A stretch of 64,000 nt of DNA from Eledone cirrhosa (taxonomy: Eukaryota), in assembly GCA_964016885.1 (NCBI GenBank), contig OZ024742.1, forward strand, positions 77,748,001 to 77,812,000, written 5' to 3'. The notes beneath the pieces are model-generated. The model did no database searches. It was not told the DNA's origin and worked only from the letters and a program-made list of their open reading frames with translations. Positions 12,729 to 47,727 of this stretch are shown piece by piece (position 1 is the first letter of the stretch; each line of letters starts with the position of its first letter). Position numbers and translations under genes: made by a program.

Positions 12729-12960
12729 GAAGTGGTTAAACAACAATTAGTTCACCATACTGAGAACAATTGTTTCACATTAGCGGATCCTCAGCTCGTA
12801 ATGGACATGGTTATACGCTGTTCCGTATAACCATGTCCATTACGAGCTGAGGATCCGCTAACGTGAAACAATTGTTCTCGGTATGGTGAACTAACTGTTG
12901 TGTAACCACTTCAACCTAACTCGTCCCATGGACTGAGTGCTCTACCACTACGGATAATTA
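12729..12960 (+). mobile_element. Mini fold-back PLE derivative: 89-bp arms, 6-nt loop, HHR-like motif in each arm, plus tail
   Basis: 12729-12817 vs 12824-12912. CGAG CTGAGGA TCCGCTAACGT GAAA CAATTGT T CTCG at 12843-12880 (stem II weak). Confidence 0.75.
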
Positions 12961-12976
12961 TATATATATATACATA

Positions 12977-13041
12977 AAGGGCGGTGCCCCAGCATGGCCT
13001 CAGCCGGATGGCTGAAACAGGTAAAAGAGTAAAAGAGTAAT
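12977..13041 (+). mobile_element. SINE 3' end, octopus type
   Basis: gggcggtgccccagcatggcc...gctgaaacaggtaaaagagtaaaagag resembles a cephalopod SINE tail (recognised from memory). Confidence 0.6.
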
Positions 13042-13417
13042 ACATCTATAATTATATATATATATATATATACATCCTTTATGTAAGCGGACAGTAAATG
13101 ACTTATGGGGCCGCAGAAACCCAAATACTGGATTTTACCATCTCTCCAGGGGTCCGGGTAAATTTTCAACCTATATATTTTTATATATTTTTATATTTGT
13201 ATATCTGTTTGACCCGAATTAGACAGTCTTTTTTTCGCTGTGCGGATGATTAGTTTAACCACCATCTCAGTGTGTTTGGCCTTTAACGTAAGTTGTAGCT
13301 CTAATTCATATGAATTATCGAAGGCTCCCCACACAACTCGGAAGTGTTTTTCGTTAATTCCTGAGCTGAAATTCGATTCTCGCTAATTTTTACTTATATA
13401 TAGTGACGAAAGATAAG

Positions 13418-13814
13418 TCAATTGCATGAACTCATAATCCTTTATTTATTGCTATATATATTTTGATGATAGCCATTGAGTGGCTATGACCTCATCAGGC
13501 AGTTAGTCAGTTCTTAGATATGCCAGCTCTGTGTTGATGGTGTTGATGGTATCAGAGCCTTGGGACATATGTGCTTGTTAGGGATAATTTAATGTTGTCA
13601 GCAGGAATAATCTTAATTCTCATTGGTCAGTTTGTAGACGCTAGTATGGTTGGTATTTGACCTCAAAAAGGCAGGTGGTGTTGTAAATTTCAAACCATCA
13701 GGTAAGATGACAATATTTCCATATGACTGATTTTCACAAAAAGCATTCCTGGTCAGATATATATTCAATTGGGGTTTATAGTATGAAATTCGATACTACA
13801 GGTCAATCTTAAAT
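13418..13814 (-). mobile_element. PLE pLTR copy inverted relative to 9553-9950; HHR inactivated
   Basis: HHR at 13448-13503 has GAAA changed to AAAA (G12A). Confidence 0.8.
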
Positions 13815-14055
13815 ATATATATATACATATATATACATATATATATATATGTGTGTCTCTGTGTGTGTGTGTGTGTGTGTGTGTGTGTGTGTGTGTGTGT
13901 GTGTGTGTGTAATAAACAACACAATACAATTATTCCATTTACACAATGTTTCATGAAGGAGGCGACCTCAACGGAGGCGTCCGAAGTTCTGTACTATACA
14001 TAGAGCACTCATCTTTCCTTTATATATAGATATGTTTCTTTATTAGCCACATATA

Positions 14056-43785: not shown

Positions 43786-44302
43786 ATATTACTATTACAC
43801 ATAGAGATATGTATGTTTATTTGTGTGCTAGTGTGTGTGTGTGTAGGAAGATGATGCTATTAGTAGAAATGGAGGAGGGAGTTGTGTGTGTGTATGGGTG
43901 TTATGTGTGTGTGTGGGAGTATGTTAAGATGGAGAGAATATATATATTTTGTGTGTGTGTATGTGTGTAGGAAAGTGATTCTATTAGTAGACATGGGGGA
44001 GGGAGTTTTGTGTGTGTGTGTGGGTGTTATGTGTGTGTGGGAGTATGGTTAGCATGTTAAGATGAAGAGAATATATATATTGTGTGTGTGTGTGTAGGAA
44101 GATGATTCCGTTAGTAGAAATGGGGGAGGGAGTTATGTGTATGTTGGGGGGGGGGGGGTAGCATGTTAAGGTGTTAGAGTATTAACTTATGTTAAGGTTT
44201 ATTTAGTTCTGGTTTTCATTTTCTAAAGTAGGTGTTATGTGTGTGTGTGTATGTATGTGTTGTTTGGATGTTTAGCATGGTATGGTGTTGACATAGTGTA
44301 TA

Positions 44303-45465
44303 TTAAACTATATTTAATGCTGATCTATATTTTTGAATAAACATATTTTCCTTAATTATCCGTATTTGTTCTGTTGTATTGTCAGCGCAATGGTAAAATG
44401 GGAAGACTTGGAACTTGGGTGTCTTATTACTTGCGCATATGTCTAGATGTGCACTTAGTGGTATCTGTCTCGTAATTTTTGGCGATGAACTGACTGTCAT
44501 TCTGTTTCTGAGTGTGAGTTTAGTTTGTCCTATATAATCTTCATTGCATCCTTTACATTTAATGGCATAAATTAGATTCTTTGATGTGCAAGTGAAGTGA
44601 TATTTTACAGCAAAATTTTGTCGTGATTGAAATGTATACGTGTTGCCTTCAATGAGGTGAGTGCAGGTTCCACAATTAGAGCGACCACATTTTTTGACAG
44701 TTGGTTGTGGGTTTGTGGTAGGTAATTTGGCATTGGTGTAATGTTTTTAGGGATTTCGGTTGTCTTTTGCTTCAGATTATTTCGTGTATTTCAAGGGCTT
44801 TTTTCATTCTTGGGTCTTGTTTCAATAGTGGGATGTTCTTTTGAATAGTGCTGTAAGCTTCCGCATTTCTTGGGTTGTGTGTTGAGATTTATGATAGAAT
44901 TTTGGACGTACCTTGCATTTGTTTCTATTTTCGTAATTCATCATTGTCTATTGCTTTAGCCCATTCTATTCCATTATTTATTAGTAATGGTGGGTACTCT
45001 CTTTCGAGCAGAATTTCCTTTAATTTTTGAAGTCTTTTATTTCGCGTTTCATAATTGGAGACAATTGTGCCAATTCTTCTTGCTAGGTTAAAAGGAATGC
45101 TCGTCTTTGTGTGCTTTGGATGGTTGGAGGTGAATAGCAGGTATTGTTTGGAATCTGTTGGTTTGTAGTGTATGTCAGTTTCAATATTTGTGTCTTTTTT
45201 TAAGATTAAGATCGTTGTATTCCACTGTGAATTGGATGTGGTTATTGATACCGCTAATTAAATTTTTGAAAGCATTCAGTTGGTCGAGTGTGTGGGACCA
45301 AAGAATGAGATAATCATCCAAGTAGCGTTTCCAATTCTCTGAGAAATATTTGTGGAAGTTCAATCCGTATTTTGATTTGGACTGTTCATATATCTGGACT
45401 TCTAAGTATGCCATGACTAAGTTGGCATAAGTTGGAGCGCCTTTTGTACCCATAGCAGTCCCAGA
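44303..45465 (-). pseudogene. PLE RT-thumb, Cys-rich linker and GIY-YIG (Neptune-like), frameshifted
   Basis: GTAMGTKGAPTYANL, WKRYLDD, YKPTDSKQYL..SNHP, CGRSNCGTC, FTCTSKNLIYAIKCKGCNEDYIGQT. Confidence 0.85.
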
Positions 45466-45707
45466 TATGACTGCATCAACCAACCAAACTACACTCATAT
45501 ATGAAAAAACAACCTGAGTCCCCCCCCCCCCTTGTTTGAAGAACTTTGTAACGCAAACTAGCGAGAAATTTATTATACTTATTCACCAACCAATCAAATT
45601 ACTTCTCTAAAAACCTGGCGTTTCGAGCCACTCTTTTCCATATAAAACAAGTAACATTCAAAGACCAATCAGATGTGAGAAAAACCACAGACCCTCCATC
45701 TCAACTC

Positions 45708-45748
45708 TACTTTTGAAAAGTAGAAGAACTGCGAAACCGGTAAAGGTA
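45708..45748 (+). ncRNA. Minimal type I hammerhead ribozyme, U3-A8 variant (family D); copies at 42508-42546 and 33298-33333 on the minus strand
   Basis: CTT TTGAAAA GTAG-AAGAA-CTGC GAAA CCGGT A AAG; the TTGAAAA core is shared by all three copies. Confidence 0.75.
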
Positions 45749-47727
45749 CCAAATAAATATATATATATTTTTTTAAATAAGACTCCAGTTGCGTTTTCGA
45801 TTTCACCTTTTTTCCTTATACTTTCACTCGTGTAGGACACCTCGGTTATTTTTCATTTTGTAAACCCCGACGGCTATTTCTGGACTAAATTAGAAATTTT
45901 AGCGTGGTAGTAAATAGCCGAACTTTTCAAGGGGTAATTCCTTATATGGTAAGATTGTAAGATTGGTCAAAATGTCTCGTAAACGCAATTAAATCTTTCA
46001 TAGTGGTTGGTAGGTGGGAGGTGGGTTGGCTGAACTTAACTGTAGAACAATGAGGGGGTGGATGGAGCCAGTCAAGCGTTGAAAGTGAATTCTATACTGC
46101 AAATTATAAGGAGTGTGTATGAAATTAGGCTTGTAAGGAAGCAGGTGAAATAGGATTCAGGAGGAATTATGACCGTCAAATTAACCATTGCCAGCTTTAT
46201 TTATTCTTAATCTGGCCTTAAAGTAATACGGACCTATTATGTTTAATTCAGACTATATAAATTATTTTCGTCGTTGAAATTTGAGAAAACAAAATTACAT
46301 TCAATTATTTATTCCTAATTATTTCAGTATTGTAAGAATTGGCCCATTCCTATAGTAAACATGTGAATATTTTCGAAACATTTGCACTGCATATGAGCAT
46401 GTTTAAATGATCACGTAATTCCAGTATCATTAAAAGATATTAATTTATTGATACGAATTAGAATTATAAATTTGTAGAACACTAAACACAGACGAATTAA
46501 TTTTTTTTATCTTTTGACGTTCTAATCACAAAACACGCTGAAGTTCGATTTGTTGCTCTTCCTATCGACTTTTAGTGGGATATAAAATTAATTATCAATT
46601 CAATGGTTAGGCGGGGATACTTAATTAAAACCTGTCTCCTGTAAATGTGTGCAATTCTAACTGTATTATACATATTCATTATCTCAATGTAAAAGTACTG
46701 GTTATGAATTCAAACCTGGTGATACTCGAACCAAGATCATCGAATCCAGAAGCTAATTATATTAGGGCATGTAGTATAACGATTTACCGTTTTTCTCATA
46801 ATACCATAAGTTATGTATTTAATTGTATATATCAGAACGGATATAATGTGAGCTTAGTTAACTACTCTGAACAAGCTGTAGTCTGCGACCTGCAATAACG
46901 TAAATGCAAAATTAAATATGTTCTGAGAACTCATACGGTGACATAACATATAAGTAAAGGTATGCCGTTAACTTTCGCTATTATATCACAACAAACTTTT
47001 CAGTAAATCTGCTTTATATTTAAAACACTAACTTCAGTATTAAAGTATCATTAAAGTTTAACATTAGTTTTAAAGCAAATACATAGTAAAATATTAGTAT
47101 AGAATGTTTAAAAAATCTGTAAAAATACGAAATTGAAAATCAGCGCAGTTAATATGGCTACAAACATGTATCCATCCGAATGTATATCTAAATGTATTTT
47201 ATATCCATATGTGTTAAATAATATATATATGTGTGGTGGTGTGGTTGCGTGTCTGTGTGTGTCTGTATGTGTACATTTAATTTGCTTTTCTTTTCATTTT
47301 ATTATAGATATTTTAACATATATATAAGGGTTGCCATCAGATACCAGTGTATACAATGAATGAATTAATTCAATAATTTTGTATCTCTTGTCCTTTTTCC
47401 CACTTTTGAATTCATAATGCTCTGACGAATTGATCCATTATTTAATTAATTCATTGATTGAGAAAAACTGGTTACGGGTGGATACTCTTATATGTATGTC
47501 TATACTTATATATATATATATATATATATATATATATATATATGTGTGTGTGTATATATATATATATATATATATATATATATATATATATATATATATA
47601 TATATATATATATATATATATATATTCAAGATTGTATATTTACACATGTTTATGCACACTCACCTGAAAACATACACGAATACCCACATACACACAACTA
47701 CAATACTATCATATAATTTTTATAACG

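Follow-up and report, generated by a model that had tools for sequence, protein, structure and literature searches.

Elements in the window

The window, a 64,000-nt stretch of the Eledone cirrhosa genome, carries several PLEs, a mini palindromic insertion and two tandem arrays, T1 and T2, in which no ORF was seen (Table 1). On motifs and similarity, B and C are Hydra-clade PLEs, and A and the mini element would join them by similarity. Hydra-clade elements are marked by RWK and DKT, a CxCX5C linker, CxxC and CxH around a conserved E and N, a GxKF/Y region that is not conserved, a C-terminal endonuclease, a hammerhead and insertion into (TA)n (PMC8557442). Intact copies of B and C elsewhere in the genome have a single ORF of 819 aa and 895 aa, respectively, with an RT (motif YRDD) followed by a C-terminal GIY-YIG-type endonuclease (YVGST/YIGST at the endonuclease end). 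Pfam gave no significant family for either the window fragments or the intact ORFs, and the domain names rest on motifs (PMC8557442) rather than on Pfam. Both proteins contain RWR and DKT, corresponding to the RWK and DKG-to-DKT marks of the clade, and CNCRANRTC, CNLC and CQH in B and CNCRVSANC, CNLC and CPH in C agree with the CxCX5C linker, CxxC and CxH. The N-terminal GxKF/Y region, read without alignment to reference clades, is GFKTF in B and GFKTY in C. C carries a hammerhead matching RF00163 at a sub-gathering score, and variant cores are present in B, A, T1, T2 and the mini element.

Element D was considered as a further Hydra-clade element and rejected. The Hydra ORF queries P0001 and P0002 had no match to its RT fragment at E 1e-5, and the fragment matches a different RT with RYLDD. 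D may be a Neptune-like PLE.

Table 1. Positions of elements, hairpins and hammerheads in the window
Feature	Position	Strand	Remarks
Mini palindromic insertion	12729..12958	+	site-1 end 12729; tail shortened in window copy
Mini hairpin 1	12919-12938	+	1-nt bulge
Tandem T1	19735..20894	-	486-nt unit; hammerhead-like core; site-1 end 19735
T1 hairpin 1	20208-20178	-	
T1 hairpin 2	20102-20086	-	
T1 inverted partial copy	20735-20894		hairpin 1 at 20818-20848
Element A	24468..28419	+	Hydra-clade PLE by similarity
A hairpin 1	24532..24551	-	4-bp basal stem, 2-nt 3' bulge, 3-bp upper stem
A hammerhead-like core (variant)	28320..28360	+	~60 nt 5' of site 1; by eye, without Rfam match
Repeats at B site-1 end	28513..28557	-	five additional 9-nt copies of the pre-hairpin-1 template, between element end and (TA)n
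Element B	28558..33075	+	Hydra-clade PLE
B inverted tail-less arm	28558-29912		100% identical to 31560-32914
B ORF, 3' part	29894-31381	+	
B hammerhead-like core (variant)	32829..32870	+	8-bp stem II
B site-1 template	32903..32914	+	short TA repeat at each end (A-B-A layout); the reiterated unit
B tail	32915-33075		ends at site 2
B hairpin 1	32918..32951	+	
Tandem T2	34456..35378	+	~522-nt unit; site-1 end ~35378
T2 hairpin 1	34848-34871	+	
T2 hairpin 2	34966-34986	+	one basal change in window copy
Solo A pLTR	37475..37648	+	ends at site 1
Family E end	37656..37803	+	second copy ends at 14307
Element C	37993..42420	+	head-to-head palindrome 37993-42319; endonuclease-end fragments only; site-1 end 37993
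C hammerhead mirror copy	38039-38083	-	
C type I hammerhead	42231..42275	+	RF00163, 31.7 bits, below gathering score 34
C tail	42320-42420	+	ends at site 2
C hairpin 1	42326..42347	+	
Element D	42444..45864	.	PLE outside the Hydra clade; RT fragment 44585-45441 (-)
D sharp end			5-9 nt before non-canonical hairpin at 45826

Element copies stop before one of two hairpins

A preliminary description of the locus had placed eight element junctions just upstream of bulged hairpins. Its coordinate pairs were all reproduced to within 1 nt, with hairpin starts exact, and every junction lies 1-6 nt 5' of its hairpin (gap from the noted point to the first hairpin base: A 5, A-solo 5, B 3, C 6, D 5, mini 6, T1 5 and T2 1 nt). 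As the AT-rich element end overlaps (TA)n, most junctions span a range instead of a single point. We read the ranges by hand, as gapped alignment extends into (TA)n and understates the distances. At site 1, the pLTR end, they lie 2-7 (A), 3-8 (B), 6-8 (C) and 4-8 nt (mini) before the hairpin; the ranges for D and T1 are 5-9 and 4-8 nt. For T2, 20/21 copies have a range of 4-9 nt and the window's copy (1-4) is an outlier. Where the overlap is 0-1 nt (window mini copy, C site 2 and family E), the junction lies 6-7 nt ahead of the stem; the family E end, which has no TA overlap, stops exactly 6 nt short of the canonical hairpin that the read-through copy L141 shows.

The pLTR-end junction of the preliminary description is thus real, but a second, equally sharp junction had been missed. 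It is the end of the tail (site 2) and lies just 5' of a second hairpin, which is found immediately past the tail end in families A, B, C, T1 and T2. Read-through copies place hairpin 2 93 nt after hairpin 1 in A (L074, L080), 166 nt beyond it in B, where the ORF start follows, and 101 nt beyond it in C (L100, L101, L108, L117); the window's A tail continues to site 2 at ~24468. The twin bulged hairpins sit between the hammerhead and the ORF start, with hairpin 2 15-40 nt before the ATG; the conserved hairpin is 16-30 nt long. Tails measure 68-166 nt in the Eledone cirrhosa genome and 55-83 nt in metagenome loci. With the B ORF on the plus strand, it is the ORF-sense arm of B that carries the tail, whereas in A the inverted arm does so, which corrects the earlier assignment.

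Junction positions across genomic copies, the check proposed at the outset, were determined for an unselected, positional sample, the first 100 of the 2966 family B copies located by pattern search. Termini were sharp rather than broadly scattered: 48 copies ended at site 1, 43 at site 2 and 9 read through, and none of the 100 ended elsewhere between the anchor and hairpin 2, 166 nt further on. (TA)n was present at nearly all ends. Element copies stop ~6 nt before one hairpin or the other, and the two termini, with the tail as their interval, have the layout of Poseidon-type internal initiation.

The two kinds of end are paired within insertions. A crude classifier scored 23/24 inverted B insertions as mixed (p 1.4e-6 against ~50% expected), and alignment identified a site-2 end in the remaining one (L447), so that 24/24 have one end of each kind. 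Among loci of 7 families chosen for their tails, 48 pairs had both ends classed as site 1 or 2, and in 46 of these the arm opposite the tail ended at site 1; in another 8 pairs an end was left unclassed. The arms of one insertion differed on average at 1.0 of 67 nt (22 pairs), compared with 2.9 between insertions. Each inverted insertion has one terminus of each kind.

Several observations count against a model in which each of two hairpins docks an RT. Ends fell elsewhere in 4/43 mini copies and at 5 of the T1/T2 ends, and mini hairpin 2 is degenerate in both read-through copies. The D hairpin of the preliminary description does have a sharp end near it but is non-canonical, its minimum-energy fold being different; a second D hairpin was sought in 51 distinct copies and not found, the two read-through copies showing an unstructured AC-rich stretch instead, and D nevertheless keeps sharp ends. 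Two D loci combine site 2 with site 2. Hairpin stability is low (about -5 to -10 kcal/mol, flanks included), and for T2 hairpin 2 the window copy has another minimum-energy fold. As to known RNA families, Rfam covariance models had no match at the window hairpins (E up to 1) or at hairpins in 6 of 78 metagenome loci (E up to 0.1).

Reiterated template at element ends

The 7- or 9-nt template preceding the hairpin was reiterated, with 1-5 extra units, at 12/48 B site-1 ends, of which a script found 10 and inspection by eye 2, and at 3/43 site-2 ends, all found by eye. Genome-wide, the reiteration pattern gave 220 forward and 253 reverse matches, the latter including nested ones. By hand count of the 85 distinct loci among the matches listed, the first unit was 9 nt in 67 and 7 nt in 18. 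These are the two unit lengths permitted by the RNA template. The sequence itself shows the twin hairpins, two sharp termini at the same spacing and the reiterated units.

DNA-level duplication does occur, as a ~29-nt duplication at L058 includes the target TA, and this counts against the model proposed below. One could suppose that AT-rich patches pairing with (TA)n set the ends, that later microsatellite slippage produced the stutter and that the hairpins have another role such as translation control or packaging. TA overlap at most junctions, the proximity of hairpin 2 to the ATG and the frequent duplication of interrupted (TA)n units in the Eledone cirrhosa genome are in keeping with this. 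However, DNA slippage predicts units of 11 nt or more, and there were none in the 85 distinct loci among the matches listed. Tails contain many other TA-rich spots, yet 0/100 sampled B copies (of 2966) ended there; the 6-nt spacing is kept at zero-overlap ends, and both hairpins are kept in the non-coding T1 and T2. This explanation is already largely refuted and we regard it as highly improbable.

Genomic ends alone would look alike whether initiation is internal or RNA 3' ends are formed at those positions. Hairpins could guide RNA 3'-end formation, by cleavage or termination a few nucleotides 5' of the stems, with the RT priming at ordinary RNA 3' ends and slipping like stringent LINEs. The same 7- and 9-nt units would be expected, the 9-nt cut-off reflecting an RNA end at about -4, and UnaL2 is an established case of slippage at RNA 3' repeats (PMC1636434). 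Yet two separate RNA classes would not yield one end of each kind in all 24 inverted insertions, and initiation in Poseidon_Ac is internal whatever 3' end the template has (PMC11167929). We therefore consider this route unlikely. Compared with a quarter of site-1 ends, only 14/1390 hairpin-containing copies showed reiteration, in each case followed by an intact hairpin 1. These 14 count against plain initiation, which leaves them unexplained; they would call for self-insertion, slippage during passage or another round.

Hairpins and TA in metagenome relatives

At least two hairpins lay within 200 nt of the ORF start in 38/54 metagenome loci, compared with 0.27 expected from shuffles, and at least two in ORF interiors in none; the other 16/54 had fewer than two under the descriptor used. 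On the reverse strand 8 loci had at least two, so that strand assignment rests on orientation to the ORF and hammerhead. Pair 5 was Watson-Crick in 94/98 hairpins (shuffled mean 51, max 64), and pairs 6 and 7 likewise exceeded every shuffle, although relatedness among the sequences inflates these covariation counts. Internal termini fell within 4 nt of a hairpin in 11/13 cases. Generality beyond the Eledone cirrhosa genome is thus suggested by metagenome contigs. Loose (TA)n ends at both sites were seen in four contig-only runs, possibly of the same sample, and were not counted as support.

UA is enriched 6-8 nt upstream of the metagenome hairpins: TA occurred within -9 to -4 of 90/98 hairpins, with a peak at -6, compared with 30/98 in a control window. 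The UA beside the hairpin, earlier proposed as the priming spot, is therefore favoured but not required, as family E and C site 2 have only 0-1 nt of overlap. TA being the target, its enrichment at -6 would also be expected if the hairpins acted in single-stranded DNA, with the GIY-YIG endonuclease cutting cDNA or element DNA at a conserved TA 5' of the stem and the cut ends being joined to (TA)n. Craig et al. ascribed the tail to endonuclease cleavage (PMC8557442), the D. virilis tail is cited as required for endonuclease recognition (in PMC11167929), and the GIY-YIG nuclease SsnA cuts ssDNA beside a hairpin (PMC11893778). Cutting and joining, in contrast, yields no template-limited 7- or 9-nt repeats, present at a quarter of ends, and ends without TA at -6 are equally sharp (family E, C site 2). 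We give this explanation little credence.

A model for paired internal initiation

In the preliminary description the hairpin was proposed to position target-primed internal initiation. The presence of two sites in each family, their equal spacing and the reiterated template at junctions point the same way, and we think it likely that each hairpin docks one RT, which uses cut (TA)n as its primer ~6 nt 5' of the stem. The endonuclease would cut both strands of (TA)n, and two RTs on one RNA would each take one target end (twin priming). Such priming would give head-to-head arms with a tail, equal to the hairpin spacing, on exactly one side. Where UA is available, the primer end may pair with 1-4 nt of it; the tethered RT would then copy 7-9 nt, realign, repeat and finally escape. 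Because the start is 5' of the hairpins, which are not both copied, a full-length copy would require a template running on beyond the pLTR into them; the simplest candidates are a hammerhead-generated circle and a template jump. A circular template has been proposed for PLEs (bioRxiv 10.64898/2026.07.22.740005; PMC4209133).

A fuller scheme, to which we give slightly less than an even chance, has an RT dimer on one RNA with two identical hairpins. Each subunit would take one end of the (TA)n double-strand cut and perform telomerase-like repeat addition on the A-B-A template while tethered, then escape and copy round the hammerhead-made circle. The Hydra RT would then be a surviving link from retrotransposon priming to the repeat addition of telomerase. 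This one scheme would explain why the tail is on one side, why the pLTR is inverted and why the tandem exceeds a unit in length.

Two analogies of the preliminary description did not hold. Hepadnaviral epsilon is a bulged hairpin near the 5' part of the RNA that templates a protein-primed start inside its own bulge. The PLE hairpins resemble it as presumed RT docking sites, but here the primer is target DNA and the junctions lie outside the stem, on its 5' side, not in the bulge. The telomerase boundary element and DRT10 share a related RT clade, an A-B-A template beside a stem-loop and repeat addition. In those systems (bioRxiv 10.1101/2025.10.16.682844) the stem-loop lies 5' of the template and sets its 5' limit, and the repeats are the product; here, on the strand of the ORF and hammerhead, the hairpin is 3' of the junction and uncopied, and the repeats are a brief, optional prelude.

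UnaL2, the stringent LINE of eel (PMC1636434), similarly has a protein-binding bulged stem-loop beside the start and telomerase-like slippage before processive copying. Its stem-loop is copied and is 5' of a single start site, itself a real 3'-terminal repeat, whereas the stem here is 3' of the start, uncopied and doubled. The closest parallel is Poseidon_Ac (Frangieh et al. 2024, PMC11167929), in which the RT initiates in vitro at two internal positions that flank the tail and coincide with the genomic ends, both strands of an AT-rich target are cut and extended, a hammerhead lies upstream and a dimer is predicted. It belongs to another clade; here the 5' UTR holds the tail, and the start is enriched in UA. 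Inverted 5'-truncated copies with the tail on one end are also known in the Hydra clade (Craig et al. 2021, PMC8557442).

Internal initiation with a tail is already published for Poseidon. Twin hairpins, the pairing rule and stutter were not found in print for PLEs in the open-access literature. The main text of the Hydra-clade paper (PMC8557442) does not mention a hairpin or stem-loop, and the supplementary text of PMC11167929 does not mention a stem, hairpin, tail or initiation; its figures S1 and S2 (predicted RNA fold), outside that search, may bear on novelty. Start-site choice, the one-sided tail and inverted pLTRs are an acknowledged open question for PLEs (PMC8557442 section 15; PMC11167929). 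The doubled hairpin with its 6-nt ruler supplies exact mutations and exact predicted starts and, together with the intact young ORFs in the genome (L211, L218), brings the start-site question within direct experimental reach. In the template-limited stutter the genome provides evidence that a sister enzyme of telomerase adds repeats.

T1 and T2 resemble non-LTR retrozymes in being hammerhead-bearing, non-coding tandems tied to PLEs; the available parts of the retrozyme reports (bioRxiv 10.64898/2026.07.22.740005; PMC4209133) name no cis signal for the RT, and the two hairpins kept in T1 and T2 would be that signal. A short, portable start signal of this kind, present also in non-coding tandems, would explain the mobilisation of retrozyme-like passengers and would be of interest to RNA-templated gene insertion tools.

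Termini fall at two hairpin-marked sites

The preliminary description had paired Penelope-like element (PLE) termini that run into (TA)n with copies continuing into a bulged hairpin; all eight junction pairs were recovered to within 1 nt, and its hairpin start coordinates were exact. One fold is common to six families, on the hammerhead strand (the ORF strand where an ORF is present), with a 4-bp basal stem (RYUC/GARY), a 2-nt 3'-side bulge (1 nt in the mini family) and a variable upper stem; family D has a looser version. Most junctions are ranges rather than points, since the element end and (TA)n overlap. 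The family ranges take in the position 6 nt before the stem, and ends with 0–1 nt of overlap (the window mini copy, the C tail end and family E) lie 6–7 nt before it. Family E, an eighth family absent from the earlier finding, stops exactly 6 nt short of a canonical hairpin, visible in copy L141. Its distinct copies share the same terminal base in 11 of 13 cases, the others being one off by a 3-nt unit and one read-through. In flanking sequence, roughly twelve more families with a hairpin and copies ending in (TA)n came to light (39 of 147 upstream 18-mers, many redundant).

The idea that ends cluster just before the hairpin was borne out for family B beyond the window, where the sampled ends fall at two points. 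The 24-mer just before its junction has 2966 exact copies in the 3.0 Gb Eledone cirrhosa genome. Among the first 100 by position, all with an exact anchor and spread over 113 Mb at the start of one contig, 48 ended at site 1 (the tail-less junction before hairpin 1), 43 retained hairpin 1 and ended at site 2, 9 read through site 2 into the ORF and none ended elsewhere. That AT-richness alone determines the ends is highly improbable beside this distribution. In the window, (TA)n tracts are abundant, as are inverted or tandem repeats terminating in them.

Read-through copies of B, A, C and the tandem families T1 and T2 contain a second hairpin a few nucleotides past site 2, followed by ATG. The tail thus reaches from one hairpin-marked site to the other, with hairpins spaced by 93 (A), 166 (B), 101 (C), 106 (T1) and 118 nt (T2). 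The mini family has the same two-site geometry (68 nt), with a degenerate hairpin 2. D also has two sharp ends; among 51 D copies examined, the two read-through copies contained no second hairpin. These two (L479 and L170) have an unstructured AC-rich stretch after the tail end, with ATG about 25 nt on, which resembles the AC-rich region where Poseidon_Ac is reported to start.

Two-ended insertions mostly carry one end of each kind

The 100 B copies represent 67 insertions, and in 24 of these both ends face outward. By a crude classifier, 23 of these 24 were mixed, site 1 plus site 2, where about half would be expected (p = 1.4e-6); alignment places the remaining end in the 24th (L447) at site 2. 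When loci of seven families were selected by their tail, the arm opposite it was site 1 in 46 of the 48 pairs with both ends classed (8 additional pairs had an unclassed end), and both non-mixed pairs were from D. Arms differed over 67 nt by a mean of 1.0 within insertions versus 2.9 between them, in keeping with one template or one subfamily.

Ends reiterate the sequence before the hairpin

At the tail-less B end in the window, the sequence preceding hairpin 1 is repeated five additional times in 9-nt units. Reiteration occurred at 12 of 48 B site-1 ends (two scored by eye; one repeating its own copy's variant allele) and at 3 of 43 site-2 ends (by eye). Genome-wide, a pattern permitting gaps up to 24 matched 220 times forward and 253 times in reverse, the latter including nested rows. 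Hand counting of 85 distinct loci among the first 100 matches listed gave a first unit of 9 nt in 67, 7 nt in 18 and at least 11 nt in none. Units of 7 and 9 nt correspond to the two alignments that would let a TA-ended primer re-pair on RNA 5' of the hairpin; slippage on a DNA tract should give longer units too. Hairpin-1-retaining copies carried the repeat in 14 of 1390 cases, against 12 of 48 site-1 ends (Fisher p = 3e-12, a whole count set against a sample). Those 14, and a ~29-nt duplication at L058 that includes the target TA, are unaccounted for by plain initiation.

At T2 site-2 ends (L270, L272 and L264) extra ATT/TTA units often precede (TA)n, possibly the same reiteration, and RT may have made several of the simple repeats that this genome has at PLE ends.

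The hairpin pair is conserved in metagenome relatives

An alignment of 40 homologous proteins retrieved 78 metagenome loci at 30–42% identity, of which 54 were kept, a few of them near-identical, after dropping 17 with short 5' ends, 5 duplicates and 2 lacking the N-terminus. With the caveat that kinship among loci inflates the hairpin, pairing, TA and terminus counts, the 200 nt before the ORF held at least two hairpins in 38, one in 11 and none in 5, compared with 0.27 loci with at least two expected from shuffles, 0 in ORF interiors and 8 on the reverse strand. The layout is hammerhead, hairpin, hairpin, ATG.

Pair 5, which the search pattern did not require, was Watson–Crick in 94 of 98 hairpins (62 C-G, 31 U-A; shuffled mean 51, maximum 64), and pairs 6 and 7 exceeded every one of 2000 shuffles. 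The bulge was UU in 65 of 98, its leading U being fixed by the pattern, and was followed by ACU in 92. TA occurred within −9 to −4 of 90 hairpins, against 30 in the control window, with a peak at −6 (48%), and 11 of 13 internal termini were no more than 4 nt from a hairpin, including three that preceded hairpin 2. The twin-hairpin arrangement is real and conserved across a clade. No Rfam family covered the hairpins in the window or in the 6 of 78 loci that were searched.

Pair 5 combined U-A in hairpin 1 with C-G in hairpin 2 in 26 of 43 pairs at L293–L370 (C-G/C-G in 15, swapped in 2). Spacing there clusters at 55–83 nt, below that in Eledone cirrhosa.

A proposed model of paired priming

The sequences show paired hairpins, two kinds of terminus equally far from them, inverted insertions with a terminus of either kind, and template-limited repeats. 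These suggest that the endonuclease cuts both (TA)n strands, and that two RTs, one per hairpin of a single RNA, would each prime on one target end ~6 nt 5' of the stem, aided where available by 1–4 nt of UA pairing. A tethered RT might realign and repeat the template before escaping, and the two cDNAs would join head to head. We consider this core of twin-hairpin, twin-RT priming probable. L1 twin priming is a parallel, as is the bulged hairpin epsilon of hepadnaviruses, a presumed RT docking site; epsilon, though, templates a protein-primed start in its bulge, and here the start is outside the stem. Processing of RNA 3' ends at the two sites seems unlikely; endonuclease cutting beside a DNA hairpin, for which SsnA offers a precedent (PMC11893778), appears slightly less likely still.

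Since the hairpins lie 3' of the start sites, no copy terminates with both, and none of 9 read-through copies was followed by a second read-through. A linear-only template would lose its start signals every generation, so that a circle or a template jump is likely needed. A circular template has been proposed for hammerhead-cut PLE RNA (PMC4209133); the circle is the weakest step of the model, because Poseidon hammerhead mutants retain insertion in vitro (PMC11167929).

For Poseidon_Ac, Frangieh et al. report two internal starts that bound the tail, located in an AC-rich stem loop, with extension of both strands and a predicted dimer (PMC11167929). In the template given in their methods, a candidate bulged stem, seen by eye and offered as a lead only, lies just 3' of the +111–118 site, inside the region found necessary. 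Craig et al. describe the Hydra clade, its (TA)n bias and a one-sided tail, attributed to the endonuclease (PMC8557442), and Arkhipova et al. attribute inverted structures to self-priming (PMC3846280). UnaL2 slips beside a stem-loop lying 5' of the start (PMC1636434), and telomerase and DRT10 have a stem 5' of the template (10.1101/2025.10.16.682844), whereas the hairpins here lie 3' of the start. We found no description of twin hairpins, the pairing rule or reiteration in PLEs in the open-access literature. The system appears to be an undescribed variant of a known mechanism and lends itself to direct testing.

Elements in the window

Intact natural copies encode proteins of 819 (B) and 895 aa (C), bearing Hydra-clade marks as listed in section 11 of PMC8557442. 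A and mini are similar; the RT of D differs. T1 and T2 are tandems without coding capacity, with hammerhead-like cores. The window copy of C retains only endonuclease-end ORF fragments, arranged head to head. (TA)n tracts are nesting hotspots for PLE families.

Coordinates of PLE and neighbouring features in the window
Feature	Position	Length	Remark
Element C palindrome	37993-42319	4.3 kb	near-perfect, 95% identity
Tandem duplication, centre of C palindrome	40089-40212	61 nt	
Family E ends	37656-37803, 14148-14307		into (TA)n
C-terminal GIY-YIG fragments, further PLE families	22789-23100, 36956-37200		- strand; adjoin (TA)n or (TG)n
(TA)n shared by adjoining families	28417-28562 (A/B), 33076-33226 (B/D), 37804-37994 (E/C), 42420-42445 (C/D)		
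Hammerhead-like cores	32829-32870 (B), 45713-45740 (D), 28320-28360 (A)		off canonical CUGANGA box
Asn-rich inserts	25495-26610, 29894-31381		RT thumb and linker region
Other fragments, presumably non-LTR retrotransposons	646-2331, 3933-4508, 53113-54475, 57164-59439, 61158-62510		labelled from motifs

The non-canonical cores of B, D and A are fixed inside each family. Asparagine-rich inserts are also described in Adineta vaga Penelopes (PMC3846280), and the insert that the intact C ORF carries at this RT thumb/linker position is longer. Several of the presumed non-LTR fragments terminate in (AAT)n/(TAA)n tracts.
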